NCBI GenBank assembly: GCA_963817915.1
Contig: CAWFQL010000012.1
Location: forward strand, 480,001 to 544,000
DNA: 64,000 nucleotides
Source of the DNA: an uncultured candidate division Zixibacteria bacterium
Lineage (GTDB): Bacteria; Zixibacteria; MSB-5A5; UBA10806
Reading direction: 5' to 3'
Every line of letters begins with the position of its first letter. Positions within the stretch are counted from its first letter, which is position 1. Below are positions 38,408-62,090 of the stretch, piece after piece. The translations under genes were made by a program, and so were the position numbers. Under the pieces are notes generated by a model. The model did not search any database. It was not told the DNA's origin and worked only from the letters and a program-made list of their open reading frames with translations.

Positions 38408-39875
38408 ATGAAGGTTAATACAAATAATCAATGGGGCGTTTTCAAAAACGCCCTTTTGAAAATTCAATTGATTTCAATAAAACGGCAAGAAGCTCGTTAT
38501 TTACTCGCTGTTTCCTTAATTGCCTTGATTTTTTCGGGTTGTGGCGCGGTCGCTACTCGGATCAGTTTTTATAAGCCGATTACTGAGGAGCTTAAATCCG
38601 GGCAATTTAATAAAGCGATCGCAAGCTTTGATCAGGCGAGGAAAAAGGGCAAATTCGATAATAAGGACAGGTTTGTTTATCTCATAGATTCAGGTCTCTT
38701 AAATTATTACGCGACAAATTACGATTCCAGCAACCAAAAACTAAACCTGGCCGAGAGTACCGCTGAAGATCTTTACACCAAGAGCCTTTCCAGGGCCGCC
38801 GCTTCTATGGTTCTCAATGATAATATTCTGGAATACGCGGGCGAGGATTATGAGATTTTATATACCAACCTGATCAAGGCACTGAATTATGTCTCGTTGA
38901 ATAAATTTGAAGATGCGTTTGTTGAAATAAAACGCGCTAATCTGAAGTTAGAACTCCTCGATCAAAAATACGGTGAGGATTCCACAGAAATCCAAAAATA
39001 CGCTGAGAATGAAACTCCCGGCGCCCAAATCGATTATTCGGCCCTTAAAATCCGATTCAGTAATGACGCTTTCGCGCGTTATCTAAGCATGCATCTCTAT
39101 GCCGCCGATGGTAAATACGATGACGCCGCGATTGACATGAACCTGCTGATGAAAGCATTCGAGACACAGCCCAACGTATATAACTTCAATATTCCTGATG
39201 CCAATTATAGCTCTCCTGACGGCGCGATATTGTCGGTGATCGGATTGGCAGGCCTCGCTCCCACTAAAGAAGCCCTGAATCTTCGAATCAGAACCGATAA
39301 GCAGCTGGGTTTGGTGCAAATACTATATACCGATCCCTGGCGAAATGATAGCGAATACGGCCATTTAATATTGCCGGTAAAAGAAGATTATTATTTCAAA
39401 TTTGCCATACCGCAGCTGGTCGAACGGCCTTCAGTCATCAAGACTATTAAAGTATATGCCGACTCGAATTGCATCGGCGAATTGCAATTAATCGAAGATG
39501 TGGGAAAATTGGCCATAGAAACATTTGAAATCAAGAAAACCATGATTTATTTGCGTTCGGTTATCAGGTCTGTCGTCAAAGGTCTGGCGGCCAATAAGCT
39601 GAAAAAAAAGGCAGATACCGGCGGCTTGGAAGGATGGCTGAAAAAGGCGGCTATCGATGTCGGCACCGATATCTCTGAAAATGCGGATTTGCGTTGTTCT
39701 CGATTTTTGCCGGGCAGAATTTTTATTGGAGATTTTGATCTAATGCCGGGGACATATAATCTGTCTATAGAATTTTTGGATGAATATGATGTTATTGTTA
39801 AACGACAGGCTTTTTCCGGGCTTTCAGGTTAGAAAAGACGGCCTGAATTTAATCAGCGCCTTTTCACCTCAATAG
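38408..39875 (+). CDS. COG3014-like lipoprotein; probable frameshift near 39817, start uncertain
   Basis: Lipobox IFSGC, YAGEDYE, NADLR motifs; usual neighbour of LpoB-like genes. Confidence 0.7.
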
Positions 39876-39887
39876 AATATAATCCTA

Positions 39888-40379
39888 TTATACTTTTCCT
39901 CTGATATTAACCTGTGACTGCAGGTAATCAATAATCTCATTATTGGAATCGAATTTAGTTACCTCGATTTTAGCAAGTTCAGCGAGCTTCATGGTAGCGT
40001 TTTTAGACGCTTCCCAATTTTCTCCCGAAAGCTCATTGAGATAAACTACTTTCTTTATACCGGTTTGCACTACCGCTTTCATACATTCTGAACAGGGGAA
40101 CACTGTGACATAAAGGCTGCAATCCGTTAGGTCTCGCAGCGCATGCAAGATTGCGTTGAGCTCGGCATGGACTACATAAAGATATTTTTCCGGTCTTTCC
40201 TGCGGAATCTGATTGTCATCGAGATTTCTCGGAAAGCCATTATAACCTGAACTTATAACCTTCCTGGTCTTTTTATCAATAATGACCGCACCTACCTGAG
40301 TGCTGGGGTCCTTTGATTTCAAAGAGGCCACAATTGCCAGAGTCATGAAATATTCTTCCCAGCTTAATGGCTTCTTCAT
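39888..40379 (-). CDS. dCMP deaminase family protein
   Basis: SKDPSTQVGA, GYNG, HAELNAI, PCSEC. Confidence 0.92.
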   Translation of the reverse strand: MKKPLSWEEYFMTLAIVASLKSKDPSTQVGAVIIDKKTRKVISSGYNGFPRNLDDNQIPQERPEKYLYVVHAELNAILHALRDLTDCSLYVTVFPCSECMKAVVQTGIKKVVYLNELSGENWEASKNATMKLAELAKIEVTKFDSNNEIIDYLQSQVNIRGKV

Positions 40380-40678: not shown

Positions 40679-40707
40679 TTGACATTTTATTGCTGTTTTT
40701 ATATTCT
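40679..40707 (+). promoter_or_regulatory. sigma70-like promoter for gdhA
   Basis: TTGACA-17bp-TATTCT. Confidence 0.6.
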
Positions 40708-40884: not shown

Positions 40885-42171
40885 ATGACTGGTAAGGCTT
40901 TTAACCCCTTTGTCATGGCTCAGACGCAATTCGATAACGCAGCCGATATTCTCGATCTCGATGCGGGGACTCGAGAGCTTCTTCGCAATCCGATGCGCGA
41001 ATACCATTTCAGTATTCCGGTGCGAATGGACGATGGCAAAACTAAAATCTTTCGCGGATTCAGAGTCCAGCACAATGATGCCCGCGGCCCGGGAAAAGGC
41101 GGCATCCGTTTCCACCCGCACGAGACTATCGACACCGTGCGCGCCCTATCCATGTGGATGACTTGGAAATGCTCGGTCGTGGATATTCCACTTGGCGGAA
41201 GCAAGGGCGGTGTTATATGCGACCCACATAATCTAAGCATGAAAGAACAAGAGCAGATCTGTCGCGGATGGGTTCGCTCCATGGCAAGAAATGTCGGGCC
41301 ATTAACCGACGTGCCCGCTCCCGATGTCATGACCAATGCCCAGCATATGCTCTGGATGTTAGATGAATTAGAAGCTATTCACGGTCAGAAATTGCCCGGA
41401 TTTATTACCGGCAAGCCGGTAGGGATGGGAGGCTCTCTTGGAAGAACCGAAGCCACGGGATACGGCGTAATATATACGCTCAGAGAAGCCCTCAAAGACA
41501 TGGGAATCAAACCCGAAAATACATTGGCAAGCGTACAGGGATTCGGCAATGTCGCCCAGTACGCGATTAATCTATACCAGCAGCTTGGCGGCAAAGTTAT
41601 CTGTGTTTCTTGCTGGGATCAGAATGACCAAAAATCTTATTCATTCAAGAAAAAAGATGGAGTCAATACCGAAGTCCTGCTCGGCATCACTGATCGTTTC
41701 GGTGGAATCGACAAGAATAAGGCCAAAGACCTTGGCTACGAGATTCTTCCCGGAGAGGCCTGGATCGAACAAGAGGTTGATATCCTGATTCCAGCCGCTA
41801 TCGAAAACCAGATAACAGCCGAAACTGTGACCAAAATAAAAAAGACTGTAAAAGTAATCGCCGAGGGCGCGAACGGTCCGACTACTCCTGATGCCGATAA
41901 AGTTATTCAGGATCGCAGAATATTCGTGATTCCAGATTTTCTCGCCAATGCCGGCGGAGTAACCTGCAGCTATTTTGAGCAGGTTCAGAGCAATATGAAT
42001 TATTACTGGGAAAAAGATGAAGTGCTTGGCAAATTAGATATCAAGATGACATCCGCTTTTATCGCGGTCAGCGAGTTGGCAAAAAAGAGGAAGCTCTATA
42101 TGCGCGATGCCGCTTATCTTATCGCGATAAATAGAGTCGCTCAAGCCTGCAAAGATCGTGGGTGGGTATAA
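40885..42171 (+). CDS. gdhA: Glutamate dehydrogenase (Glu/Leu/Phe/Val family)
   Basis: GPGKGGIRF, GGSKGG, DVPAPD, RTEATGYG, QGFGNV, EGANGP, PDFLANAGGV. Confidence 0.93.
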   Translation: MTGKAFNPFVMAQTQFDNAADILDLDAGTRELLRNPMREYHFSIPVRMDDGKTKIFRGFRVQHNDARGPGKGGIRFHPHETIDTVRALSMWMTWKCSVVDIPLGGSKGGVICDPHNLSMKEQEQICRGWVRSMARNVGPLTDVPAPDVMTNAQHMLWMLDELEAIHGQKLPGFITGKPVGMGGSLGRTEATGYGVIYTLREALKDMGIKPENTLASVQGFGNVAQYAINLYQQLGGKVICVSCWDQNDQKSYSFKKKDGVNTEVLLGITDRFGGIDKNKAKDLGYEILPGEAWIEQEVDILIPAAIENQITAETVTKIKKTVKVIAEGANGPTTPDADKVIQDRRIFVIPDFLANAGGVTCSYFEQVQSNMNYYWEKDEVLGKLDIKMTSAFIAVSELAKKRKLYMRDAAYLIAINRVAQACKDRGWV

Positions 42172-42259
42172 TAGATTTGAAATCGACGCATCCCTGGTGA
42201 TTTTTAGGGGTTTGCCGATGGCAATAATCTAAGTCTGATACAACTTCGTTACCGAAACT

Positions 42260-42309
42260 AAAGAGATAAGGATCAAGGCTTGACTTAGGCGATCCTTATC
42301 TCTTTCTTA
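42260..42309 (+). terminator. 15-bp stem-loop between gdhA and dikinase gene (terminator or mRNA-stability hairpin)
   Basis: aaagagataaggatc ... gatccttatctcttt then ctta. Confidence 0.65.
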
Positions 42310-42351
42310 TATATAAGATTGAATGGCCACTTTGACTCAAGGAGTCGTTTC

Positions 42352-44109
42352 GTGGACAAAAATGCTGATTATTCTTCGCTTGATAATTTAGCTCCATTTG
42401 AGCGCAAGTTTTTTGATTCAGCGGAAAATTTTACATATATCGGTTCAGGCTCTATCGGAGGGAAAGCTCAGGGGCTCTCATTTATAAAGGATTCGCTTAT
42501 ATCCCGAATTGAACCTGACTCATTTCCGGGCATTACTGTTGATATTCCTCGATTGACTGTTTTAGCCACAAGTATCTTCGAAAAATTCATGAAAAGAAAT
42601 AATCTATATGAGATTGCTCTTTCGGATTCGCGCGACGACCAAATCGCGCACGCGTTTATCAAGGCAAATTTGCCGACAGAAATAGTAGGTGATCTCCGAT
42701 CACTAAGCGACAAAATCCATTCTCCGCTGGCTATCAGGTCATCGAGCCTTTTCGAGGATGCCATGCACGAACCATTCGCGGGGGTATACTGCACGAAGAT
42801 GATTCCCAATAATCAATTCGATGCTGATACGAGATTCAGGATTTTGGCGGAGTCGATAAAATTCGTTTTTGCTTCAACATTTTTCAAAGAAGCCAAAGAA
42901 TATATTTCTACCACCGGCCAGTCTCCGGCTGATGAGAAGATGGCTGTGATTATTCAGGAAGTAGTAGGGCAAAGGCATGGCATTCGTTATTATCCCCACA
43001 TTTCAGGTGTCGCCAGATCGTACAATTTTTATCGCACCGGACACGCCCGGCCCGAGGACGGAGTGGTCGATCTTGCCTTGGGACTTGGCAAGACTGTAGT
43101 CGATGGCGGTAAATCGTGGAGCTATTCGCCTGCCTATCCGATGGCCAATCCGCCATATAAAAATATCAGAGATATGCTCAATCAGACACAAACCGATTTT
43201 TGGGCTGTTAATATGGGGAAGCCTCCTGCTTATGATCCTGTAAAAGAAACAGAGTATATGGTTCAGGCAAATTTAACCGACGCTGAGTCCGACGGTACAT
43301 TGGATTATCTTGTTTCAACTTATCAGCCCAACAATGATCGTTTGACTATGGGACTAGGCTACGATGGTCCCAGAGTCATTAATTTTGCCCCCATTCTCAA
43401 ACTCGATGAAATCCCGCTAAATAAATTAGTGCGCTTTCTCCTAAAGCTCGGCGAGGAAGTATTGGGCAATGAAGTCGAGATTGAATTTGCCATGACCATA
43501 AGTCCAAAGGCCGACGTGCCGGCAAGGTTCGGATTCTTGCAGGTGAGGCCAATGTTTGTTTCTCACGCGCGGGTTAATATCCCAATTGATGAAATGGACT
43601 CTCCAAATCTGTTGGCCGCCTCCAATAACGTGCTCGGTAATGGCATGATAAATAACATTCGAGATATTGTTTGTTTAAAAAAAGGAGGATTTACCGAACG
43701 TGAATCCCATATAATAGCCAGCGAGTTGGAAAGGATTAATCACCGATTGATCGCCGAAGGATTGCCATTTCTTCTTATAGTGTTCGGACGATTGGGGACT
43801 ACAGATCCGCCGTTTGGCATACCCGTCAGCTGGTGGCAAATATCCGGCGCGAAGGTTATTATTGAGACTACGTCGAATGAAATGAATCTGGAATTATCCC
43901 AGGGTTCGCATTTTTTCCACAATGTCCTTAGCTCACAGGTTGGTTATTTTTCGGTGACACAATCGGGTGTTGATTCGATACGTTGGGAGTGGTTGATTAA
44001 TCAACCGCAAGCTGATGAATCTGAATATATCCGGCATGTGAAACTCGCATCGCCGCTTAAAGTAAAAATAGATGGGACCAATGGTCGTGGTGTGATTTAT
44101 TATGGATGA
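42352..44109 (+). CDS. PEP-synthase/PPDK N-terminal (ATP-grasp) domain protein lacking the pyruvate-binding barrel
   Basis: AGGAG RBS + GTG; IGGKAQGL, AIRSSSLFED, FAGVY, GLGKTVVDG, EIEFA, LQVRP, SQGSHFF. Confidence 0.88.
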   Translation: MDKNADYSSLDNLAPFERKFFDSAENFTYIGSGSIGGKAQGLSFIKDSLISRIEPDSFPGITVDIPRLTVLATSIFEKFMKRNNLYEIALSDSRDDQIAHAFIKANLPTEIVGDLRSLSDKIHSPLAIRSSSLFEDAMHEPFAGVYCTKMIPNNQFDADTRFRILAESIKFVFASTFFKEAKEYISTTGQSPADEKMAVIIQEVVGQRHGIRYYPHISGVARSYNFYRTGHARPEDGVVDLALGLGKTVVDGGKSWSYSPAYPMANPPYKNIRDMLNQTQTDFWAVNMGKPPAYDPVKETEYMVQANLTDAESDGTLDYLVSTYQPNNDRLTMGLGYDGPRVINFAPILKLDEIPLNKLVRFLLKLGEEVLGNEVEIEFAMTISPKADVPARFGFLQVRPMFVSHARVNIPIDEMDSPNLLAASNNVLGNGMINNIRDIVCLKKGGFTERESHIIASELERINHRLIAEGLPFLLIVFGRLGTTDPPFGIPVSWWQISGAKVIIETTSNEMNLELSQGSHFFHNVLSSQVGYFSVTQSGVDSIRWEWLINQPQADESEYIRHVKLASPLKVKIDGTNGRGVIYYG

Positions 44110-47100
44110 ACAAAAAAAATCGACAGATAAGCTCGTTTGGTTCCTGAAGGAAAGAGCTAAAGAGCTCAATTGTCTTTATAAGATCGAAGAGCATCTCAAC
44201 GATCCCGACAAAGATATAGGCGAAATTTGCAAGGGAATCATTGATGTCATTCCTCCCGGATGGCAATATCCCGATATTTGTCAGGCAAAAATAACTCTGA
44301 ATGGCGTTACGTATAAATCCTCGAATTTCAGAGAGACTGAATGGGTTCAGATGGCGAACATAATTGTCCTCGATGATGTCATCGGGACACTGTGGGTTTA
44401 TTATATCATGGAAATGCCGGCTGCCGATTTCGGCCCGTTCCTGAAGGAAGAAACCAAATTGATCGGCACGATCGCTGAACGTCTTGGTAATTTTATCGCT
44501 CATCAGAAGATGAGACGCGTTTTCGATGAGTATAAGAATGCGGCGCAGGACCTCATTGATAAGTCAAAACCTGAATGGCGTATTATCCTGGATTTATTAA
44601 GGGAAACAGATAGGAGTCTTTTCCTCAGGATATCTCACAAGATGCTTAATCATCTGTGCTGGAACGGCATCGAGGATGCCAAGGGTCTGATGCGGTATTA
44701 TAGCCCTGATGCCCGTCCCGGCGAAGAGGGTCAATCGTCCCAGGAGAATAAACCTTTCCAAAAGAAGGTACTGATTTCATCGAATGATTTTCTAAGCGAT
44801 GAAACATTCAAAATTGCTACGGATAATCTGCCATCGGAAGAGATACTGGGATATATACAGAAATGGATTCAACAGGATAAACTCAATTTCCTGGTTAAAT
44901 CGCTTGTCAATCTTAATGCCTCGATGTCGGAAGTCGCGGACGCCGTTCGTCGTTACCAGAGAATGACTCCAGAGGGCATTGATATTCCTAATCCAATTAG
45001 AGAGGGCGTGCTGGTATCTCTTATTCGCCGCTTCTTTTCCGACCAGCTCGATTTTATTAATGTCGCCAAAAACTATGTTGGGATAGGCGATTTTTACAAT
45101 TTGATACAAAATGTTATCTATACAGATGATAGCCACGGCAAGCTCGGCGGAAAGAGTGCAGGCCTATTTATTGCCATGCAAATACTTAGGAAATGCGGCG
45201 ATCCCGGGATGCTGGCAAATTTGAAAACTCCCAAGACCTGGTATATCTCATCAGACCTACTTATTTATTTCATGCATCATAATAATTTCGAAGAAGTGAT
45301 AGAACAAAAATACAAAGATATTAACCAGGTAAGAGTGGAATATCCGCATATAGTTCAGACATTCAAAAATGCCCACTTTCCCCCGGAATTTGTTAAGGGC
45401 GTTTCGATGGCGCTGGATGATTTCAAAGACAATCCATTGATTGTTCGCAGCTCCAGTCTTCTTGAAGATAGAACTGGCGCCGCGTTTTCGGGAAAATATA
45501 AAAGTCTCTTTATTGCCAATCAGGGAAGCAAGGAGGAACGGCTCGAAGCGGTATTGGACGCCATCTCCGAAGTCTATGCGTCGACATTCGGGCCCGACCC
45601 AATTGGATATCGTATCGAACGGGGCCTGCTTGATTTTCATGAGGAGATGGGAATAATGATTCAGGAGGTCGTCGGAACAAAGGCCGGAAAGTATTTTCTA
45701 CCCGCTTACGCGGGAGTAGCTTTTAGTAAGAATGATTTTCGCTGGTCTCCGAGGATCAAAAGGGATGACGGTCTAGTTCGGCTTGTCCCGGGGCTGGGAA
45801 CACGCGCTGTGGATCGCCTGAGCGATGATTACCCGGTATTGATGTCGCCCGGACAGCCGGGACTTAGAGTCAATGTTACCCCGGAAGAATCGATTAGATA
45901 TTCACCGAGGAAGATTGACGTTATCAACCTCGAAACGAATACTTTCGAAACAATCGATATAGGCGTTCTGCTAAAAAACTGCGAAGACGAGTACCCGGCT
46001 CTTAAACAGATATTCTCCATCAACCAGGACAGGCATATCTCGGAAATCTCCGGACTGGCCCTGGATTTCGTTCACACCGAATTTATCGCCACCTTCAATG
46101 GCCTCATTGCCAAAACCTATTTCGTAAACACGATTCAATCGATCCTGAAAATTCTCGAAGAAAAAATGGGCGTCCCTGTTGATATAGAATTCGCTTCAGA
46201 TGGTCGCGATTTTTACCTTTTGCAATGTCGGCCCCAAAGCCATTCCGAAGAAAGTATCGGCGCCGCAATACCCAATGACGTTCCCGAGGATCGAATGATT
46301 TTCACTGCCCGAAAATTTGTATCGAACGGGCGAGTCCCTGAAATTACCCATATCGTCTATATCGATGATCAAAAATATTCCGAGATTGGTGATCGGGGAA
46401 CTTTGCTCGAGGTCGGTAGGGCTGTCGGGCGATTGAATATGCTTTTGCCCAAACGGCAATTTATCTTGATAGGCCCCGGTCGATGGGGAAGCAGGGGTGA
46501 TATTAAATTGGGAGTCAATGTCACCTATTCCGACATCAACAATACCGCTGTTCTTATCGAAGTAGCGCGCAAGCGGGGCAATTATGTTCCTGATCTATCC
46601 TTCGGAACCCATTTCTTTCAAGACTTGGTTGAGGCGCGCATCAGATATTTGCCATTGTATCCCGATGACGCCGGAATAGTTTTTAATGAACGATTCCTGA
46701 AAAATACTCCTAACGTCCTGACTGAAATCTTGCCGCAGTATGGTTATCTTTCCGACACTATACGGGTGATAGATGTGCCCAGATCGTCAAATGGCAGAAT
46801 TTTGCAAATCTTAATGAATGCTGATTTGGATGAAGCGGTCGCGTTGCTTGTCCAGCCTGATTTGGGAATTGCAGCTCCCATCCAATTGAAAAATAATGTC
46901 GAGCATTCGGCCGACCATCATTGGCGCTGGCGAATGAGAATGATCGAGCATATCGCGTCGCAGATTGACCCGGCACGCTTCGGTGTTAAGGGCTTTTACG
47001 TATTTGGCAGCACCAAAAATGGCACTGCGGGCCCCGGAAGCGATATCGATATTTTAGTGCATTTCAAGGGAACGAAGAAACAGCAAGAGTCGCTAAGTCT

Positions 47101-47293
47101 CTGGCTCGAAGGCTGGAGCCTCTGCCTCGGCGAATTGAATTATTTACAAACAGGTTATAAGTCGGATGGACTGCTGGATATTCATATTATAACCGATGAC
47201 GATATCGCCCACAGAAATAGCTACGCGATTAAAATCGGGGCTGTTACCGATGCTGCCAGGTCGCTTCCACTAATGAAGAAAGATAAAAGCTAA
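44102..47293 (+). CDS. Multidomain protein: N-terminal sensor-like region, PPDK_N ATP-grasp domain, C-terminal minimal nucleotidyltransferase
   Basis: LKERAKELNCLY; LGGKSAGL, VRSSSLLED, FSGKY, DIEFA, LQCRP, SFGTHFF; YVFGSTKNGTAGPGSDIDILV (GS..DxD). Confidence 0.88.
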   Translation: MDEQKKSTDKLVWFLKERAKELNCLYKIEEHLNDPDKDIGEICKGIIDVIPPGWQYPDICQAKITLNGVTYKSSNFRETEWVQMANIIVLDDVIGTLWVYYIMEMPAADFGPFLKEETKLIGTIAERLGNFIAHQKMRRVFDEYKNAAQDLIDKSKPEWRIILDLLRETDRSLFLRISHKMLNHLCWNGIEDAKGLMRYYSPDARPGEEGQSSQENKPFQKKVLISSNDFLSDETFKIATDNLPSEEILGYIQKWIQQDKLNFLVKSLVNLNASMSEVADAVRRYQRMTPEGIDIPNPIREGVLVSLIRRFFSDQLDFINVAKNYVGIGDFYNLIQNVIYTDDSHGKLGGKSAGLFIAMQILRKCGDPGMLANLKTPKTWYISSDLLIYFMHHNNFEEVIEQKYKDINQVRVEYPHIVQTFKNAHFPPEFVKGVSMALDDFKDNPLIVRSSSLLEDRTGAAFSGKYKSLFIANQGSKEERLEAVLDAISEVYASTFGPDPIGYRIERGLLDFHEEMGIMIQEVVGTKAGKYFLPAYAGVAFSKNDFRWSPRIKRDDGLVRLVPGLGTRAVDRLSDDYPVLMSPGQPGLRVNVTPEESIRYSPRKIDVINLETNTFETIDIGVLLKNCEDEYPALKQIFSINQDRHISEISGLALDFVHTEFIATFNGLIAKTYFVNTIQSILKILEEKMGVPVDIEFASDGRDFYLLQCRPQSHSEESIGAAIPNDVPEDRMIFTARKFVSNGRVPEITHIVYIDDQKYSEIGDRGTLLEVGRAVGRLNMLLPKRQFILIGPGRWGSRGDIKLGVNVTYSDINNTAVLIEVARKRGNYVPDLSFGTHFFQDLVEARIRYLPLYPDDAGIVFNERFLKNTPNVLTEILPQYGYLSDTIRVIDVPRSSNGRILQILMNADLDEAVALLVQPDLGIAAPIQLKNNVEHSADHHWRWRMRMIEHIASQIDPARFGVKGFYVFGSTKNGTAGPGSDIDILVHFKGTKKQQESLSLWLEGWSLCLGELNYLQTGYKSDGLLDIHIITDDDIAHRNSYAIKIGAVTDAARSLPLMKKDKS

Positions 47294-48150
47294 ATTATTT
47301 TCCTGATTGCATCGCCTGGATTTTCAGGATCGAATATAACCAGCGAAAGCTCTTGGCCGTCATGGGCGGCTGAAAACATATTCGTTTTTCCAATCACATC
47401 CTTCCATGAGCCGGTTATCCTCGCCGATTCATGAATATGACCATGCAATGTTATCAGTGGCTGTTTCGATTCGATTAATTTCCTAATGGCGATACTACCG
47501 ACATGCGGATCCAACGGTACATGGTCAACCATTTTGCCATCCGATGCTATCCTGTCGAGTTTTGTATCATGCGGCGGCGCGTGAAATAAAAATATCGAAT
47601 TTGTAAGATCATTATTTTCTATAAGCCGATTCAAGTCATTTTTGATAGTGCCATATCGAAAATCATGCTCCGGTACCGGCACACTTCGATAGCCTTCCTC
47701 CGGCGACACATCTCCGGGGTCGATATATCGCGAGACATCATATTTTTCCCAATCCTTCAAGAGGAATGGCGTCGGCGGCACATAAGAATAACCATAAACA
47801 GTATATTGTCCGAATTCTACTTTGCGTTCGTTAATATATTCCCAAATACCCTTGCCGCTGGCTTCTATTATTGCCGGCTCTTCGATTTTCCAGTCGTCAT
47901 TGCCGAGAATAATGAATATTCGAGGATAGCTTTCATTTAATGACACCTTCAACTCCGACAATCTTGATATTAGAAAGCCGTTGATGAAGTCAGCATGATA
48001 AGCGCCCTTCGTTGCCATCGATGCCAACCCCGATGGCAGAATATCGCCACCGATAAATACCGCGGCCGGTTTTATCTCCTTGATTGAGGCAAAAAGCTTT
48101 TCATATCGATCAATCTTGCCATGTAGATCGGATACGAAAAAGCAAGTCAT
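47290..48150 (-). CDS. Calcineurin-like metallophosphoesterase
   Basis: SDLHG, GGD, GNDD, HAPP, HGHIHE; stop overlaps that of the NTase fusion. Confidence 0.9.
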   Translation of the reverse strand: MTCFFVSDLHGKIDRYEKLFASIKEIKPAAVFIGGDILPSGLASMATKGAYHADFINGFLISRLSELKVSLNESYPRIFIILGNDDWKIEEPAIIEASGKGIWEYINERKVEFGQYTVYGYSYVPPTPFLLKDWEKYDVSRYIDPGDVSPEEGYRSVPVPEHDFRYGTIKNDLNRLIENNDLTNSIFLFHAPPHDTKLDRIASDGKMVDHVPLDPHVGSIAIRKLIESKQPLITLHGHIHESARITGSWKDVIGKTNMFSAAHDGQELSLVIFDPENPGDAIRKII

Positions 48151-48900: not shown

Positions 48901-49660
48901 TTAATTACGCTTGAATGGTTTATATCCTATCAAAACAGGGTATTGCTCTTCGGGGGATTTCTCTGAGAAAGTAAAATGGCCATTCTGCGGCTCGAATCCA
49001 ACATCCCTCAAAAGCCCTTCCCATGTATCCAATGAAAATATTCCGCAAATATGCTGGTCGAGTTCGACTCTCAAATCTCCATTCTGGCGAATCAAATAAA
49101 CGAATAATAAGTCATAGATAGTATCATTTGGATTGGGGTCGTAATAATGTTCAAAATAGGTGATTTCGAGCCCGTTATTCGAATGAGTCTGAACCCTTGT
49201 TCTGAATTGCCTGAATTTTTCGGGAGTTTCTTCAGCAACAGTCAATATCATTCCGCCCTGCTTCAAATGGGCAAATGCCGTCTCGAATACGAGCCGCAAA
49301 TCATTTTCAGTAGTCATATACGCGATTGAATCATATATCAACACTATATCGAATTGCTCATTCAGGCGGATATTCCTCATATCGCCCTGAAAGTATTTCG
49401 ATTCCGGGTTTAGATTTCGCGCGATAGATAGCATTTCTTCGCTCAAGATCGATTCCGGTAATATCAAAATGCTGTTTGAATGTCTTATCTATATGACCGC
49501 CTCCGCATCCCAAATGCAGAAGCGTTTTGGGCTGAATTTTGCTGTTTGATACAGCTATATTCGAAAAAAACTCGCCCTCTTCAATATAGTCTTCCGGCGG
49601 GCTCATGACTGGCCAAATCCAGGCCATATCCTTGTATAATCGCTCTTTTTTCCTGTCCAT
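48901..49660 (-). CDS. Class I SAM-dependent methyltransferase; frameshift near 49446
   Basis: LHLGCGGG, GID then shifted LSEEML, QGDMR, HLKQGG. Confidence 0.85.
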
Positions 49661-50902: not shown

Positions 50903-51245
50903 GTTTTTATACAAATCTAGTCATAAAAATCAAGAGATAAAAACCATTGTTACTGATTGCTACCAACTTCATGCTTCCGAGGCATTTATGATTTATAAAA
51001 ATTGCTCAAAATACTTGCTTATCCATAATATTGTGCTATTATTAATGCAGATTCACTTCCTTGATCTGCACCAGGGGTGGGCGGCCCCGCAACCGCTTAT
51101 ATTTTAGAACTTCATATTTTAATTTTGGCGCTAAACTGATAAGATGATTTTAATTTGGCAGAGGAGGAATGAGACAATAGAGAAATCTGCAATTTGGTGT
51201 TTGTAGTATTTTGGGCCGATTGAAATGAAAGAGGAGAGTTGTCTT

Positions 51246-52919
51246 ATGAAAAAATCCAATGTTACTGTCATGATTATGGCAATTTCAATTGCTGTAATTG
51301 GAATATTTACCGCCAATGCCGCGCCGCCGCTAATCAGTTATCAAGCCAAATTATGCGATAGCAGCGGGAATCCTGTCCCCGATGGCAATTATCAAATGAT
51401 CTTTAGCATCTATGGCGATTCCGTTGGTGGGACACCATTGTGGACAGAGGTCCGTCCCGCAGTTTCAACTTCAAGCGGCTATTTCCACCTTAACCTGGGA
51501 AGCACCGAGCCATGGGATGAACGGAATATGCTGGGGCCATCAACACGATATCTGCAAATTCAGATCGGTAGTATGCCTCCGATGTCACCTCGCACGAAAC
51601 TTACCTCAGTCCCTCAATCCGTATTTACTCAAAGGGTGTCCGGGGATATCGAGACATCCGATAGCAGCCTTACGCTTCAGCGGGGAACACAGGCGGTTCG
51701 ATTGCTAAATGGTCCCGAGACAATAGGACTCGTTATAGAGGATAGGCCAACTGATCTTGTAAACGGTAGGGTCTTCCGTGCCGGTATGGATTCCACCGGT
51801 GTCAATTTCGGATTGGATGGTCCTAATGGCAGCAAGATGATCGAAGCCACTGCTCAGTCCGGCGTTGCCGGCAGGGCTAGTTGGGTGATGTTCAATCCCC
51901 AGCCCGAACCGCCCGGTCATGATCCTTTCAGGCTTTTCGAAGTGAGCACAAATGGTCTTGGCCAGGCCAGCTGGGTGATGTTCAACCCTCAGCCGGAACC
52001 GCCTGGCTCTGATCCGTTCAGGTTGTTTGAAGTCAGTACCGGTGTTGGTGGCGAGGCCAGCATGGTCATGTTTAACCCTCAGCCGGAACCGCCCGGTAGC
52101 GATCCGTTTCTTACATTAAGAACAAATGTCAGTGGCGCAAATTTCTCTATGAACGCACCCCAGGCGAGAGGTGCTGCCTTAGTTAATAATCACCCTCAGA
52201 TAAATATCAGGTGCGATAGCACGGCCAGCAGATTGCTTTTGCAGAGGGGGCGCACTATGGTTGGCGGCCCTTCAGATAGCACCGGATTTTCCATGTATGC
52301 CGATTCTGTCAGCAGCGAAATGAGGTTTTTCAATAACAGTAATCTGCAACTGAAAATTACCTCCAACGCAACCGGGGCGACACTGGGTTTTATTGATGAT
52401 GGCAGCGAGTATATGGGTGTAGAACCGGCCCCGTGGCATGCGGGCGGCGAACTCACAATGAGCGATGCTGCAGGCGGTCCGACGCTGGTGTTATCATCAG
52501 ACGGCATGGCCAGTATTGGAACAGGGAATCATACGAATATTCTAACAATAGCTCAATACTCCTCAACCGATCCTATCGCCGATGCCTGGACTACATACAG
52601 CTCACGCAGATGGAAAACCAACATCGAGCCGTTGAAAAATCCATTATCGAAAGTTATGTCTCTGCGGGGCGTATCATTTGATTGGAAAGAGAATGGCAAG
52701 CACGATATCGGTTTCATCGCTGAAGAAGTCGGCGAAATTGTGCCGGAAGTTGTCGCCTACGAAAAGAATGGAATTGATGCGCAATCAGTCGATTATGCTC
52801 GTCTGACTTCCTTGCTCGTTGAAGCGGTGAAAGAACAGCAGAAAATGATAGACGATCTCAAAGCCGAATTAGTTGATTTGAAAGCGGAAATTAACAAAAA
52901 AGCCGATTTGGGCAAATAA
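51246..52919 (+). CDS. Secreted fibre-like protein 1: conserved YQ-domain, FNPQPEPP repeats, C-terminal peptidase S74 intramolecular chaperone
   Basis: Signal peptide; ISYQAKLCDSSGNPV; YSSRRWKTNI..GFIAEEV..VDYARL..LVEAVKEQ coiled coil. Confidence 0.85.
   Translation: MKKSNVTVMIMAISIAVIGIFTANAAPPLISYQAKLCDSSGNPVPDGNYQMIFSIYGDSVGGTPLWTEVRPAVSTSSGYFHLNLGSTEPWDERNMLGPSTRYLQIQIGSMPPMSPRTKLTSVPQSVFTQRVSGDIETSDSSLTLQRGTQAVRLLNGPETIGLVIEDRPTDLVNGRVFRAGMDSTGVNFGLDGPNGSKMIEATAQSGVAGRASWVMFNPQPEPPGHDPFRLFEVSTNGLGQASWVMFNPQPEPPGSDPFRLFEVSTGVGGEASMVMFNPQPEPPGSDPFLTLRTNVSGANFSMNAPQARGAALVNNHPQINIRCDSTASRLLLQRGRTMVGGPSDSTGFSMYADSVSSEMRFFNNSNLQLKITSNATGATLGFIDDGSEYMGVEPAPWHAGGELTMSDAAGGPTLVLSSDGMASIGTGNHTNILTIAQYSSTDPIADAWTTYSSRRWKTNIEPLKNPLSKVMSLRGVSFDWKENGKHDIGFIAEEVGEIVPEVVAYEKNGIDAQSVDYARLTSLLVEAVKEQQKMIDDLKAELVDLKAEINKKADLGK
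51876..52110 (+). repeat. 90-bp tandem repeat (about 2.6 copies) encoding AS(W/M)VMFNPQPEPPG(H/S)DPF
   Basis: Units start at 51876, 51966, 52056. Confidence 0.95.
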
Positions 52920-53816: not shown

Positions 53817-56807
53817 ATGAAAATCGCGAAAACAATTTTACTGACAGTATGTGCATTAGTGGCAATGTACACATTCATTTTTGCCGCTGACGCGGGTAAG
53901 ATCGGTTCTTCGGGTAAGCCGGGAGACGCAATCACCTCGGTGCCGCGCACTTTAACTTATCAGGGAATTCTCAAAAACAATACCGGCCAGCCGGTTGCCA
54001 ATGACACGCTCATGGTCACGTTTAGGATTTTCGACCAATTGGCCGGCGGGACTATCTTCTGGAATCGCGATATCAGCGTTCACACTGATGCCCAGGGGAT
54101 GTTCACCGCATTGCTTCCTGAAATGAACCTGTCATTCGGTAACGACTACTATCTTGAGATGCAGATCGATGTAGCGGGCCCCATGACTCCGCGCCAGATG
54201 CTGACCATGTCTCCTTATGCCGCTCGTTCAGATACTGCGGATTTTGCGGCTAACGCTTCCTCCAACTGGACTGTGAGCAATTCTGTTATTCAGACCAGCA
54301 ACTATTGGGGAATAGCCCGCGGCAATGCTGGCAATGTGTTATTAGGTGATAGCGCTCGTACGATGGTGAATCTCGGCGTCGCCTGTACCACGGGAACCAT
54401 CAGCTATAGTCCATCTTTTTCTACAGTTGGCGGTGGTTTGGGAAATTCTGCCGGCGGCGAATTTGCAAATGTTAGCAGTGGGCATAATAATACAGCCGGG
54501 GGCTCGTCAGCTTCTATCGGAGGCGGTAGTGGCAATAATGCCAGCGGCGGGGCATCCGTGATCGCCGGAGGGTACAGCAATACTGCCGGCGGCCCGAATT
54601 CTACGGTCGCAGGGGGGAATAGCAACACCGCCCCTGGTCAGAACGCTACCGTAGGCGGCGGCGGTAACAATTTTGCTAATGGCAACAACTCCACCGTTGG
54701 CGGGGGATGGTATAACATTACCAACGGCGATTCGAGCTTCGTAGGCGGCGGTCTTCACAATAGTATCCACGGCGTTGGTGGCACAATTGGCGGCGGAAGG
54801 GCAAATACTGTTTCAATGGAATATAGTGCCATTACTGGCGGAGAATTAAACAACGCCAATAGCTATAATGACTTTATCGGTGGCGGTTATGGGAATACCG
54901 TCAATGGTGGCCATAGTGTCATAGGTGGCGGAGGTAATAATATCGTAAATGGCTCCCAAAGCGTGATAGTCGGAGGAAGCCAAAATATCGCTGATTCTTC
55001 AAATTCATTTATTGGCGGCGGAGCATATAATCATGCGTCCGGACACTATAGTACAATCGCAGGAGGGGGGGCTAATAGCGCCTTGGGATCGAGGAGCACC
55101 ATTGGCGGCGGAAGATATAATTCCGCTGGAGATACAGCTTTTGTCGGAGGGGGATCTTATAATAACGCGTCGGGGATAAGTAGTACTATCGGGGGTGGTT
55201 CATCAAATACCGCAAGCGGCCCCAATGCTACCATTAGCGGCGGCCAGAGCAACGCTGCAACCGGGCCGTACGGTACCGTTGGTGGAGGCATACGGTAATA
55301 TAGCCAATGCAAGGTCCGCCATTGCTGGAGGAACTGGCAATATGGCTCTTGAGCAGGAGGTCTCTATTGGTGGAGGGGCTAACAACACAGCCAATGGTTT
55401 TAGAAGCACAATTGCCGGCGGTGCTATTAATACGGCCTCGGGCAATTACAGTATTGTGAGCGGAGGACTCCAGAATAACGTCGGCGGAGCTTTCGCGGGC
55501 GTAGCTTCAGGATGGCAAAACACTGCAGGAGATGCCGCAAGTGATACAGGCGCATTCGTTGGTGGGGGTCGATCCAATTCCGCAACAGGAATGTACAGCA
55601 CAATCTGCGGAGGCAGTGGCAATCTATGCAGTTGGGCAATAGTAGCCGACAGTGGCAGGGGGAGGATAGTAATTACGTAGCAAGATTCCAGTTTGCAATA
55701 TCGGTGGGGGTAGCTATAATCGCGCAACCGGTGATTCGAGTTTCGTAGGCGGCGGCGGCCACAACATTGCCGGCGGAAATAGCAGCACGGTGAGTGGCGG
55801 CCGAAACAATAGCGCAAGCGGCGACGCGAGCACTATCGGCGGTGGTGAAATTAATACTGCGAGTAGCGCAGGCGCTGCAATAGGCGGTGGGGGCGGTAAT
55901 ACTGCAAGCGCTATGTATAGCTATATTGGCGGCGGCGCTGCCAATTACGCCCCAGGTAAATTTGCCGCGGTTAGCGGCGGATGTACCAATTCGGCCACCG
56001 GTGACTCGAGTTTCGTGGGTGGCGGTAGTAATAATACTGCCAGCGGAGTTGGCAGCTACTGTCGGAGGAGGTCCAACACCAGATGCAATGCTAGCGGCGG
56101 ACAATAGGCGCTACAATCGAGCGGTGGCGTAAACAATGCTGCCAGCCTGGATTATGCAACGGTAAGCGGTGGTGTCATACAATAACTGCCAACGGCCAAT
56201 ATTCTGTGATAGGTGGCGGAACCAACAATACGGCCAGTGGCACAGCACTCTACTGTATGTGGGGGAGACGGCAATGTTGTCAGCGGGCGGCTGTAAGTAT
56301 GGCTTTTGGGAGTGTGTTCATCTACTAACATTCACTTGCGGTTGGCTTATTCGAATCCAGCGAATTCAGGTCGTCTTGGGCGTAAATCGCGATGACAATG
56401 ATGGTGGAATAAATTACCCAATTCACGTTGGCACGAGTACTTCCAACGGCAATGGCGCTTATCTGACAGCAGGCGGTGTTTGGACTAATGGCTCCTCGCG
56501 CACCTTCAAAGAGAATTTCACTCCATTTAATGGCTCTGAATTGCTCTCCAAAATTTCGAATTTATCGATTACCACATACAATTACAAAAATAGCGCTGAG
56601 AAGCATGTCGGCCCCGTGGCTGAAGATTTTGTGGGTGCGTTCGATACTGGCGTGATCCGCGAATCCGACAGCAAACGCGATGACATGTATCTGTCCTCCG
56701 GAGACGTAGCAGGTGTAGCATTGGCCGGAGTGCAGGAATTGATAAAGAAGATTGAGCAGTTAGAAAAAGAAATAGCGGAACTGAAAGCCCAGCAGGGAAA
56801 GAGGTAA
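53817..56807 (+). CDS. Secreted fibre-like protein 2: YQ-domain, long 15-aa Gly-rich repeat stalk, S74 chaperone; several frameshifts at about 55290-56370
   Basis: GGGAG RBS, signal peptide, LTYQGILKN; STxGGGxxNxA repeats; NGSSRTFKENF..HVGPVAEDF..ALAGVQEL. Confidence 0.8.
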
Positions 56808-59356: not shown

Positions 59357-61525
59357 ATGAAGATTTCGAAACTGTTCTCGATTTTTATTTTTGCCACCAT
59401 TATTTTCGCTGATAATTCACTACTAGCTGGAAATCTTGGCAAAAATAAATTTGACGAATCATTCATAAACACTATTACCAATTTTGCAATACAGCGCATC
59501 TTGACTTATCAGGGTATCTTGAAGGACAATTTGGGAAATCCAGTTCCCGATGCCTCATATAATATTGTATTCAGAATTTACAGTACTTCAGTAGGCGGTT
59601 CGGCACTTTGGGGCAGCCCGTCAGTACAGGTAACAACGAATCACGGGCTATTCTCAACCTCAATTGGTCCGATATCACTGCCGTTCGATACCCCGTACTA
59701 CTTGTCTCTGCAGGTCGGTGCGGATCCCGAAATGGCGCAAAGACAGACATTGACCATGACTCCATACTCCGCCAGTGCGGATTCAGCCAATCACTCTATT
59801 TCATCTGATACCAGTACAACAGCTCGCAACGTTCTGGATAATAGCATCACCAGCGCGAAAATAGTTAATGGCACGATCCTATTTACAGATATCGCTCAAA
59901 ATGGAGCGATCAAGCGGTCAGGTGATGAAATGGAACGGTGCGTCTTGGGTGGCCAGTAACGATTCCATCGGCGGCGGAAGCGGCAATACAGGCTGGGTAG
60001 ATGCAGGGACGATAGTATCTTTATCAAGCCTGGGCGATTCGGTTGGCATCGGCACTTCGGCTCCCACAGCCAAGCTTCAAATTGAAGGAACACTAAAAGT
60101 CGCAGACAAGGCCAATATCGGGCCGTCTAATACAAACGCAGGATTGAACGCCTTCGTAGCCGGATCGCAAAATATTGCCAGCGCAAATTATAGTACTGTC
60201 GGAGGAGGGCAAAATAACTCGGCTCAGGCGATATATGGCTCCATAAACGGCGGGAATAGTAACAATGTTGGCGGAAGCTACGGCACGGTAAGCGGTGGGC
60301 TTGGTAATAATGCCGCAAATAATTATAGCGCAATCGGCGGCGGTTTCGAGAATTCGGGAGACGGAGAATATAGCTCTATAAGCGGGGGATACCAGAATAC
60401 CAGCGCAGGTTTAGTGGGGGCCATATCAGGAGGACAGGGTAACACTACCAACGCTTATGCCGATTTTATCGGCGGCGGAGCCTTTAATTCTGTTTATGGC
60501 CTTACCGGTACTATTTGCGGAGGTCAGCAGAATCTTGTCAGCAATGACCATGGCACGATCGGCGGCGGAATGGCGGATACGGTCATGGGGGTCTTCGGCG
60601 GAGTAGCTTCGGGATATTCCAATCTTGCCGGTGATGCGGCGACAGATTCGGGAGCATTTGTGGGTGGCGGTTACAATAATTCGGCGATGGCGTTTAATTC
60701 AATTGTCGTAGGCGGATACAATAATACGGCCGCCGGTGATAATTCAATTGTCAGCGGAGGTTATAATAATTCCGCGACAGGAGCCAATTCGACCGTAGCG
60801 GGCGGAAATTCTAATTCAGCTACAGGCGGCACTTCTGCTATTGGCGGCGGAACTAATAATGTCGCGAGCATCGATTGCGCTGTTGTCACGGGGGGGTGCT
60901 TCAATACGGTTTTGGGGAGCAGTTCCGCAATTTGCGGCGGTGTTCAAAACTATGTCAGCGGAACTGCCAGCGTTATTACCGGCGGAGCCTTTAATCATAT
61001 ACTTGCTGATTACGTAATGGCCTTTGGCGGCAATGTCCGCATTACCAACCCATATCGGATCGGCTTTTTTAATTCGATTTCGCCGGGGCGTCTCGGGCTA
61101 AATCGGGATGATAATGACGGCGGCATAAATTATCCGATTACTGTGGGCACGAATACTTTCAATGGCAACGGAGCCTATCTGACTGCGGGCGGCGTCTGGA
61201 CCAATGGCTCTTCGCGGACATTCAAAGAGAATTTTACGCCATTCAATGGCTCATGAATTGCTTTCCAAAATATCAAATCTATCGATTACTACATACAATT
61301 ACAAAAATACACCGAGAAGCACATCGGCCCTGATGGCCGAGGATTTTGTCGGGGCATTCGATACCGGCGTCATCCGCGAATCCGACGGCAAGCGCGATGA
61401 TATGTACTCTATCGTCCGGAGACGTGGCAGGCGTTGCATTGGCCGGAGTGCAGGAATTGATAAAGAAGATTGAGCAGTTGGAAAAAGAAATAGCGGAGCT
61501 GAAAGCTCAGCAGGGAAAGAGGTAA
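59357..61525 (+). CDS. Secreted fibre-like protein 3: YQ-domain, 15-aa Gly-rich repeats, S74 chaperone; frameshifts near 59910 and 61250-61415
   Basis: GGGAG RBS, signal peptide, LTYQGILKD, GQVMKWNG, GIGT..P..KL, NGSSRTFKENF; 3' end nearly identical to fibre 2. Confidence 0.8.
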
Positions 61526-61529
61526 TTTT

Positions 61530-62090
61530 ATGATTAAGAAAATTTTGCTTTATATACTTATTAACGCTCCGCTCTGCCTGGCCCAGAACTATCGTATCGA
61601 CTGGTATGTCATCGGATCTGGCGGAGGCCATAGTCAATCATATAATTATCAGATTGACGGCACCATCGGCCAGCCAATAGTAGGACAATCATCTTCAGCA
61701 AACTATCAAGTCGATGCAGGTTTTTGGGTTGGGTTTGCCAGCCCGCATGGCGGCTGCGTTTATGTTGTAGGGGATGCTAACAATAGTGCCACATTCAACG
61801 GTCTCGACGTTACCTACAGCGTCAATTATTTCAAGGGCGGCGCCGCGCCTCCATACAGCTGCGAATGCACACCGGGCAATACATGGTTCGTCTCCGGCGA
61901 TGTCAACAACAGCTGCAGCTTCAATGGCCTTGATGTCACTTACATGGTAAATTATTTCAAGGGTGGAGCAGGCCCTATGCCTTGCGCCGATTGTCCCCCG
62001 GCGGGAATTGCAGTATCTGCAGGCTCAACATTACCAACTGATGCACAAATACCAATTAAGCCAAATATTACACTGAGCCCCAGCAAGTAA
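61530..62090 (+). CDS. Small secreted protein 3: IDWYVIGSGGG domain plus dockerin
   Basis: Same architecture as copies 1 and 2; starts 4 nt after fibre stop. Confidence 0.87.
   Translation: MIKKILLYILINAPLCLAQNYRIDWYVIGSGGGHSQSYNYQIDGTIGQPIVGQSSSANYQVDAGFWVGFASPHGGCVYVVGDANNSATFNGLDVTYSVNYFKGGAAPPYSCECTPGNTWFVSGDVNNSCSFNGLDVTYMVNYFKGGAGPMPCADCPPAGIAVSAGSTLPTDAQIPIKPNITLSPSK

Follow-up and report, generated by a model that had tools for sequence, protein, structure and literature searches.

What do two dikinase-like proteins that lack a substrate-binding domain do beside a glutamate dehydrogenase? The question is raised by a four-gene cassette in a window of 64,000 nucleotides, the whole stretch of DNA analyzed here, from an uncultured candidate division Zixibacteria bacterium (contig CAWFQL010000012.1, positions 480,001 to 544,000). 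In this cassette gdhA, which encodes a glutamate dehydrogenase (GDH), is followed by two paralogous genes, here called short and long, and by a metallophosphoesterase (MPE) gene on the opposite strand (Table 1). An earlier note, made from the letters of the DNA alone, had placed these four genes, the overlap of the two dikinase-like genes after gdhA and the convergence of the MPE gene on long; open reading frame (ORF) coordinates and Pfam matches recovered all four where it had put them, with an 8-nt overlap between the stop codon of short and the ATG of long (ATGGATGA) and a 4-nt overlap between long and the MPE gene. We observed the architecture, folds, conserved catalytic residues, synteny and co-occurrence described below, and on these grounds we tentatively favor the view that the cassette is a sensor-controlled phospho-histidine regulator of the dikinase type dedicated to its own GDH.

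Both paralogues contain the ATP-binding core of a dikinase. PPDK_N is the sole Pfam match of the short protein, and the long protein matches PPDK_N together with NTP_transf_2 and Polbeta (residues 959-1004, of which the NTP_transf_2 match spans 959-996). Conservation was followed in three alignments, of 95 long-type sequences (A1), of 39 short-type and long-core-type sequences (A2) and of 18 full-length relatives of long (A3), and folds were taken from AlphaFold2 models of long (pLDDT 90.5, pTM 0.78; 95 aligned sequences) and short (pLDDT 86.7, pTM 0.85; 39 sequences). The ATP-grasp residues K351, R449, S451, E514, Q521 and E696 are kept in 90-93 of the 95 sequences of A1, and the residue set K, RSS, E, Q, E in 84-93 of the 95. 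Structural comparison places the ATP-grasp domain close to rifampin phosphotransferase (RPH; 5hv1, Z 26.4 for long and 25.8 for short) and HpeI (9goj, Z 18.9 and 18.7), with phosphoenolpyruvate (PEP) synthase and PPDK also near. A sequence search of the PDB returned a marginal match of long to PEP synthase and RPH (E about 0.005), none for short, and 2yvt for the MPE at E 0.26.

The ATP-grasp is joined directly to a domain with a conserved histidine (residues 727/728 in long, about 405/413 in short) with no intervening substrate domain, after which short ends and long runs on into a nucleotidyltransferase (NTase). The histidine stands in the motif S-x-G-S/T-H-F-F, at the N-terminus of a helix in both models (residues 519-527 in short), and is kept in 39 of 39 sequences of A2, in 69 of the 77 sequences of A1 without a gap at this position and in 16 of 18 in A3; the His domains of long and short match each other with an hhalign probability of 100%. 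Aligned over both domains, the long model matches RPH 5hv3 (Z 27.0, 401 aligned, model residues 262-916), PEP synthase 2ols (Z 26.1, model 308-908 against chain 13-500) and PPDK 1dik (Z 18.6, 354 aligned, model 308-920 against chain 12-514), and the short model matches 2ols (Z 25.4, 365 aligned, model 25-585 against chain 8-466), 1dik (residues 17-510, Z 18.1) and 5hv3 (Z 25.5). Taken by itself, the C-terminal domain of short (model 413-585) superposes on the PPDK phosphoryl-carrier domain 2fm4, a nuclear magnetic resonance structure (Z 7.1, rmsd 3.9, 116 of 128 residues), and on the PEP-utilizer-like C-terminal domain of Geobacillus pyruvate kinase 2e28 (Z 6.8). The ESM Atlas was uninformative for the His domain (best score 0.88, to unnamed or 'putative PEP synthase' clusters). 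Pfam found no PEP/pyruvate-binding TIM barrel in short or long, and in the predicted models neither protein has room for such a barrel or for a substrate-binding domain. The combination that the earlier note had read here, intact ATP-grasp motifs and a conserved His motif (SQGSHFF in short, SFGTHFF in long) in both proteins and a pyruvate-binding barrel in neither, is confirmed. Because there is no substrate domain, the phosphoryl group, or the phosphorylation state, would pass to a protein partner.

The distribution of the family points to GDH as that partner. At least 7934 of 7999 scored candidates match, 1079 cluster representatives do so at E<=1e-30, and at least 805 stretches (of 810 pattern-matched) were confirmed in species-representative genomes; among the matches listed are Zixibacteria, Ignavibacteria/Melioribacter, Calditrichota, Acidobacteria/Aminicenantes, Planctomycetota, Krumholzibacteriales and others, including Melioribacter roseus (a metagenome-assembled genome) and a RefSeq record of Melioribacter sp. 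Ez-97. The best 80 of the at least 805 stretches were searched with the window proteins, and a locus was taken as evaluable where it had at least 3.4 kb upstream (59 loci). Of these 59, 51 have a GDH gene (at least 65% identity) immediately upstream in the same orientation. When the ORFs of 98 loci were clustered, the recurrent ones were GDH (72 loci), the short/long family and MPE (34 loci), and no other recurrent neighbor appeared in the 98 besides antisense ORFs and lineage-specific genes.

The same association is seen at the level of whole genomes. Among 41 related genomes, the cassette GDH clade (at least 68% identity) is present in all 18 with long and in none of the 23 without, whose best GDH match reaches at most 56% identity. 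In three of the 18 (G019, G022, G034) the GDH lies on another contig than long, so that here the two co-occur although no adjacency is seen. Of 151 genomes sampled evenly from the phylum, with cut-offs of E<=1e-150 for long and E<=1e-160 for the GDH clade, 85 contain long and 86 the GDH clade; both are present in 85, GDH only in one and long only in none, which puts the GDH clade in 85 of 85 long-carriers vs 1 of 66 others. The linkage to gdhA, for which a synteny survey had been proposed, is therefore conserved and near-exclusive, and GDH, the one gene that is never missing, is for that reason the likely target.

The N-terminal region of long, described at first sight as sensor-like, has a real GAF fold. 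It superposes on GAF 3cit (Z 12.7-13.1, rmsd 2.3-2.4, 123-126 aligned), on NifA 8jrc (Z 11.3) and on PtsP 3trc (Z 11.0) and 3ci6 (Z 10.4), with more than 30 further GAF entries among the top 50 structural rows; the Pfam GAF models do not detect the region by sequence. Residues 15-139 of long share 38% identity (E 2e-25) with residues 212-336 of a 570-residue GAF-HisKA-HATPase_c kinase. In eight of eight loci fetched, the gene after the related histidine kinase encodes a sigma54-type response regulator (REC, Sigma54_activat, HTH_8), and in six of the eight a co-directional GDH paralogue follows these two, a count to be read with the fact that six of the eight loci were chosen for a GDH match on the same contig. 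An unbiased count finds a GDH-family gene within 10 kb of 7 of 18 kinase-type carriers (ORFs of 560-610 residues). The loci L183, L184, L185, L186, L187 and L188 show an operon-like arrangement of kinase, sigma54 regulator and one to three GDH paralogues.

In a third class of paralogues, of about 990-1030 residues, a receiver replaces the GAF domain (REC, PPDK_N, His domain); none was found in the source genome. Two members of 992-993 residues, L191:6456-9434(+) and L193:2238-5219(+), stand beside a 475-residue GDH-family gene and a REC-GerE regulator. The inputs mounted on the ATP-grasp and His-domain unit are thus interchangeable (GAF, REC or none), and the proteins therefore resemble signaling transmitters. 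The unit itself occurs always around GDH genes.

For a regulator dedicated to its own GDH, the following sequence of events can be proposed. The GAF domain of long would read a metabolite, glutamine, glutamate and 2-oxoglutarate being the obvious candidates, and its ligand would set the rate at which the PEP-synthase-type ATP-grasp phosphorylates His837. Dikinase chemistry would convert ATP to AMP, inorganic phosphate and a phosphohistidine on the swivel-like carrier, and the phosphorylated domain would act on GDH either through phosphotransfer or through binding that depends on its state. The NTase would be an accessory second output, in most lineages, and short and the MPE would together make up an accessory sub-module, perhaps with short as a kinase subunit that has no sensor and the MPE as the enzyme that resets the system.

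Several points weigh against this proposal. Autophosphorylation, the ligand, GDH as the target or modified protein and the sign of regulation are all steps that we infer, and the closest structural relatives of the ATP-grasp, RPH and HpeI, are small-molecule kinases. The swivel assignment of the His domain rests on predicted folds, in which it resembles such a domain, and the single-domain Z of about 7 is rated middling, so that this match is support and no proof. By sequence, the isolated His domains match no Pfam family at E<=10, PF00391 included, and hhalign against 25 PEP-utilizers domains from relatives gives probabilities of 0.6% and 0.1%. A PF00391 search of the source genome matches a canonical 948-residue PPDK-type gene on another contig and a 518-residue ORF, and misses short and long. 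The motif histidine is replaced in 8 of the 77 aligned long-type sequences and in 2 of the 18 full-length ones. As for the linkage, eight of the 59 evaluable loci are without an upstream same-strand GDH (L077, L078, L079, L084, L102, L108, L111 and L118), although in L079 a GDH is present on the opposite strand. The cut-offs behind the 85 of 85 in the 151-genome sample were set after the 41-genome result had been seen, and related genomes are not independent. The single exception in that sample, G046, has the GDH clade and no match to long at E<=1e-150. In the 16 kb fetched around its cassette-clade GDH (79% identity; L182, C2:1133000-1149000), long, short and MPE are all missing.

The alternative that survives best, though we consider it unlikely, follows from those structural relatives: short and long would form a two-component small-molecule dikinase resembling HpeHI or RPH, which phosphorylates a metabolite or makes a phosphorylated or nucleotidylated signal that the MPE degrades, and the linkage to GDH would reflect a shared pathway or regulon. 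The best ATP-grasp matches are indeed RPH (Z 26-27) and HpeI (Z 18.7-18.9), the RPH 5hv3 alignment includes the swivel domain, and the MPE, which co-occurs with short, could hydrolyze a small phosphoester. Split small-molecule dikinases exist, HpeHI having its function divided over two proteins (PMC12167813). The likeness is incomplete at the places where a substrate would be held. The cassette proteins lack an RPH/HpeH-type substrate-binding domain, with the His domain coming directly after the ATP-grasp; the ATP-grasp match to 5hv1 covers residues 1-317 or 1-362 of RPH and no more, and the 5hv3 alignments (chain 5-866, 344-401 aligned) skip most residues between ATP-grasp and swivel. The cassette paralogues each hold both an ATP-grasp and a His domain, whereas HpeI and HpeH divide them between two proteins. 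Unlike RPH and HpeHI, moreover, the cassette family has sensor domains, its input domains vary (GAF, REC or none), and the minimal cassette is GDH plus one protein.

Rather less probable is the possibility that the module senses the same signals as GDH and acts on some other, unlinked target, so that the linkage would be a matter of co-regulation or co-transfer. The three genomes with GDH on a different contig (G019, G022 and G034) agree with it, as does a hairpin in the spacer after gdhA, which suggests partly separate transcription. The 159-nt spacer between gdhA and short has a folding energy of -46.6 kcal/mol (z -4.0), a stability that none of 200 shuffles reached, and of 50 related spacers after gdh, 34 hold a hairpin with a U-rich tail by lenient criteria, vs 22.2 +/- 2.7 (maximum 27) in 20 dinucleotide shuffles. 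Rfam at gathering scores gave 0 matches over the whole 64-kb window, and no known riboswitch or leader was found there. The hairpin, a feature absent from the earlier note, fits abundant GDH with lower-level downstream regulators. Against an unlinked target stand the 98 loci, which hold no other conserved neighbor gene, and the co-occurrence with the GDH clade in 85 of 85 genomes.

The earlier note had proposed a writer/eraser system, and the form of this idea that bears on the C-terminal domain of long is that the NTase nucleotidylates GDH in the manner of GlnE and the MPE removes the mark, the dikinase parts being auxiliary. The catalytic motifs of both components are intact. The GS..DxD NTase that had been read at the C-terminus of long is intact, with G969, S970, D981 and D983 kept in 18 of 18 full-length relatives and the third Asp, D1026, in 17 of 18. 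Its fold is nearest to MNT-type NTases (Foldseek neighbors 2rff, E 0.016, and the HEPN-MNT entry 8xeh_E, E 0.021), and MNT-type NTases are known to AMPylate proteins, as in MntA-HepT. The MPE has all the calcineurin-like metal-binding motifs (DxH, GD, GN(D/H), H, GHxH), and at least 97% of 34 orthologues share its ligands D8, H10, D36, N84, H190, H236 and H238; in 23 of 59 evaluable loci its gene adjoins long and converges on it. A defense-system reading was also considered and rejected, since PADLOC gave only weak partial matches, to PDC-S09 for the NTase (E 3e-8 over some 37 residues) and to PDC-S10 for the MPE.

The distribution of these parts makes such a writer and eraser improbable. Long proteins that end at about residue 920, before the NTase, adjoin a cassette-clade GDH in eight of eight loci fetched, and around them tblastn at E<=1e-4 over 8.3-11.5 kb found no NTase, short or MPE match in any of the eight. 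The MPE tracks the short paralogue and not the NTase. Loci evaluable on both sides carry short and MPE together in 20 cases, neither in 23, short only in four and MPE only in three, and the 85 long-carrying genomes have both in 53, neither in 27, short only in two and MPE only in three. In the Aminicenantes loci L070 and L098 short and MPE are direct neighbors on the opposite strand. Short and long also occur fused in that order as single polypeptides of 1523-1654 residues (P0053, P0058, P0124, P0128 and P0130), from which we argue that the paralogues work together; short probably pairs physically with long. Given the NTase-less, GDH-adjacent forms and the coupling of short to MPE, the invariant unit is GDH plus a protein with GAF, ATP-grasp and His domain, to which the NTase is one add-on and short with MPE another. 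Nor do GlnE or GlnD families appear among the Pfam or NCBIfam matches of long: a Pol-beta superfamily NTase beside a nitrogen-assimilation enzyme recalls GlnE and GlnD, but the cassette NTase is of the minimal MNT type and is dispensable for the GDH linkage. What stands of the writer/eraser proposal is therefore the GDH linkage, the dikinase-like cores and the intact NTase and MPE motifs; its assignment of roles does not, as the NTase is dispensable and the MPE follows short.

If GDH is the target of a phospho-His regulator, its own features deserve attention. The cassette GDH is a protein of 428 residues of the hexameric type with both ELFV domains and the GGSKGG lysine intact, and this lysine (K107, in the glycine-rich GGxKGG) is nearly invariant in 48 cassette GDHs. 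Its nearest solved structure is 1euz (E 3.8e-122), followed by 1gtm, 2tmg and RocG 3k92, all hexameric GDHs of about 420 residues, and it scores below the NCBIfam equivalog cut-offs (GdhA_Arch, 467 bits vs 750). The source genome encodes two more GDH paralogues elsewhere, of 43% and 35% identity, and the cassette GDH is therefore an extra, specialized copy. Comparison of the 48 cassette GDHs with 20 unlinked GDHs of relatives gave 31 clade-specific positions and two insertions, which may be plain phylogenetic differences because the comparison set is a different GDH subfamily. The insertions occupy residues 243-248 (CWDQND here, CWDQxD in the clade, with Y252 after it) and 280-283. In the alignment to 1euz, the former lies directly after the second strand (ending ...VS) of the coenzyme domain, and every cassette-clade copy examined has it, whereas the kinase-linked GDHs lack it. 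We considered the 31 clade-specific positions, including Y252, H115 and H154, as candidate modification sites and name no site among them.

The last alternative takes GDH for the missing third domain of a split dikinase whose phosphohistidine carrier would pass its phosphate to a 2-oxo acid or imine intermediate held on GDH, so that ATP drives amination, with the GAF, REC and NTase parts only tuning it; the near-exclusive one-to-one co-occurrence with a special GDH clade, the clade-specific insertion beside the coenzyme site and the fact that PEP synthase chemistry acts on a 2-oxo acid speak for it, but the sensor inputs, the NTase and the terminator-like hairpin fit regulators better than stoichiometric subunits, and we think it very improbable. 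Were it true, it would constitute an unrecognized high-affinity ammonium route parallel to GS-GOGAT.

Some relatives carry unusual forms of the cassette GDH. Second, divergent cassette-clade copies of 60-69% identity occur at L179:7824-9095(-), L180:2522-3772(-) and L191:2343-3650(-), and all three have lost the GG(S/A)KGG lysine (K107 replaced by N, S or M). Judged from their sequences, these lysine-less copies may be catalytically dead regulatory subunits. They recall a regulatory pseudo-subunit such as that of the hetero-oligomeric GDH of Thermus thermophilus, which has a catalytically inactive regulatory paralogue (PDB 3aoe contains two different chains); the GDH of the window differs in keeping its lysine, and we know of no dikinase-like partner in the Thermus system. 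In genome G008 (L029:13155-14439(-)) the cassette GDH, at 87% identity, lies in two overlapping frames (1-266 and 265-428), which is a frameshift or an assembly error.

How a dikinase-type regulator of GDH would relate to characterized proteins is best seen from the nearest precedent, VadK (Rv1127c) of Mycobacterium tuberculosis, a truncated PPDK that acts as a regulatory His kinase; it is reported to autophosphorylate on His422 and to bind enzymes of the methylcitrate cycle (PMC13400623). VadK has ATP-binding and phospho-His domains and no PEP/pyruvate domain (PMC13400623), and the architecture of short and long is analogous. VadK is a recent PPDK truncation, whereas the cassette His domain has no sequence relation to PEP-utilizers; the cassette family further adds GAF or REC inputs, an NTase and paralogue pairs with MPE, and its linked enzyme is GDH and not one of the methylcitrate cycle. 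PEP synthase and PPDK themselves share PPDK_N with the cassette proteins and superpose on them in both the nucleotide-binding domain and the central His domain (2ols Z 25-26, 1dik Z 18), but the cassette proteins are without the TIM barrel and, by sequence, without PF00391. For the input side, work on EI-Ntr (PtsP) of the nitrogen PTS describes how glutamine binding to its GAF domain inhibits autophosphorylation (PMC4848567). In EI-Ntr an N-terminal GAF controls the autophosphorylation of a swivel His from which the phosphoryl group goes on to proteins, and PtsP GAFs are among the fold matches of long. The cassette differs in that its phosphoryl donor would be ATP through an ATP-grasp and not PEP through a PEP-binding barrel, in having no gene for an HPr/NPr-like carrier, and in a His domain that is not homologous by sequence.

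GDH stands at a junction of carbon and nitrogen metabolism, and to our knowledge bacterial GDH has no established post-translational switch of its own that compares with the adenylylation of glutamine synthetase. If the cassette is such a switch, it would represent a second kind of histidine-phosphotransfer transmitter, built from an ATP-grasp and a swivel His and parallel to the HisKA/HATPase kinases, and it would offer a handle on how anaerobic degraders of amino acids and proteins gate glutamate oxidation or ammonium assimilation. Melioribacter roseus is cultured, which makes the hypothesis testable. Full-text searches of the literature, with subscription journals outside their coverage, returned no description of the cassette. 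The title of a 1996 study by Baggio and Morrison reports trans-acting genes downstream of gdhA. The Bacteroides thetaiotaomicron genes BT1971 and BT1972 were considered as possible members of the cassette family and rejected, BT1971 being a catalase.

The coordinates of the cassette and its parts are collected in Table 1.

Table 1. Genes, domains and sites of the GDH cassette, in window positions
Feature	Position	Strand	Description
gdhA	40885-42171	+	ELFV_dehydrog E 1.9e-70, ELFV_dehydrog_N E 4.4e-53 (Pfam)
short paralogue	42352-44109	+	585 residues from GTG; PPDK_N E 1.7e-35 (Pfam); C-terminal His domain; neither sensor nor NTase
long protein	44102-47293	+	1063 residues: GAF fold, helical linker, PPDK_N ATP-grasp, His domain, MNT-type NTase
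metallophosphoesterase (MPE)	47290-48150	-	Metallophos (PF00149) E 5.2e-9; convergent with long gene
candidate sigma-70-like promoter upstream of gdhA	40679-40707	+	TTGACA-17-TATTCT, 10/12 consensus matches
hairpin in gdhA/short spacer	42260-42305	+	two 15-nt arms, U-rich tail; terminator- or attenuator-like
conserved His codon of short	43909-43911	+	H531 counted from TTG, H520 in the 585-residue form; SQGSHFF
GAF-fold sensor domain of long	44129-44536	+	residues about 10-145; structure match
ATP-grasp (PPDK_N, PF01326) of long	45140-46282	+	residues 347-727; Pfam E 6e-60
His domain of long	46283-46876	+	residues 728-925; His837 at 46610-46612, motif SFGTHFF
MNT/Pol-beta-type NTase of long	46910-47290	+	residues 937-1063; NTP_transf_2 (PF01909) E 5e-11, Polbeta E 3.6e-7

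Two entries need comment. The longest ORF of the short gene starts from a TTG at 42319, and the public database form (P0273, 585 residues) starts from the tabulated GTG, which has AGGAG upstream. The gdhA promoter candidate is weak, because a consensus scan found 16 promoter-type sites, no more than the 16.7 in shuffles.

Other parts of the window hold features of their own. Upstream of the cassette, a 474-residue ORF (38408-39832, +) belongs to no Pfam or NCBIfam family, and a homologue of 56% identity lies just downstream of long on one Zixibacteria contig (L057:2617-3792(-), 1 of 80 loci). Between this ORF and gdhA, a dCMP/ComEB-type deaminase gene (39888-40379, -) gives partial matches to anti-phage dCTP deaminases (NCBIfam 91.5 bits vs 400; PADLOC dCTPase E 1.7e-29), and its product is probably an ordinary deaminase. 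Beyond the MPE gene, a minus-strand ORF of 188 residues (48901-49467) matches only the C-terminal two thirds of S-adenosylmethionine (SAM)-methyltransferase profiles and overlaps a second of 100 residues (49358-49660, -); going by the reading frames, the pair at 48901-49660 may be one frameshifted methyltransferase gene. A protein of 564 residues (51225-52919, +) has a C-terminal Peptidase_S74 chaperone domain and a weak match to the N-terminus of a Bdellovibrio 'mosaic adhesive trimer' fiber. Local G+C rises to 0.53 at 54001-56000 and 0.50 at 60001-62000 vs about 0.45 elsewhere in the window.

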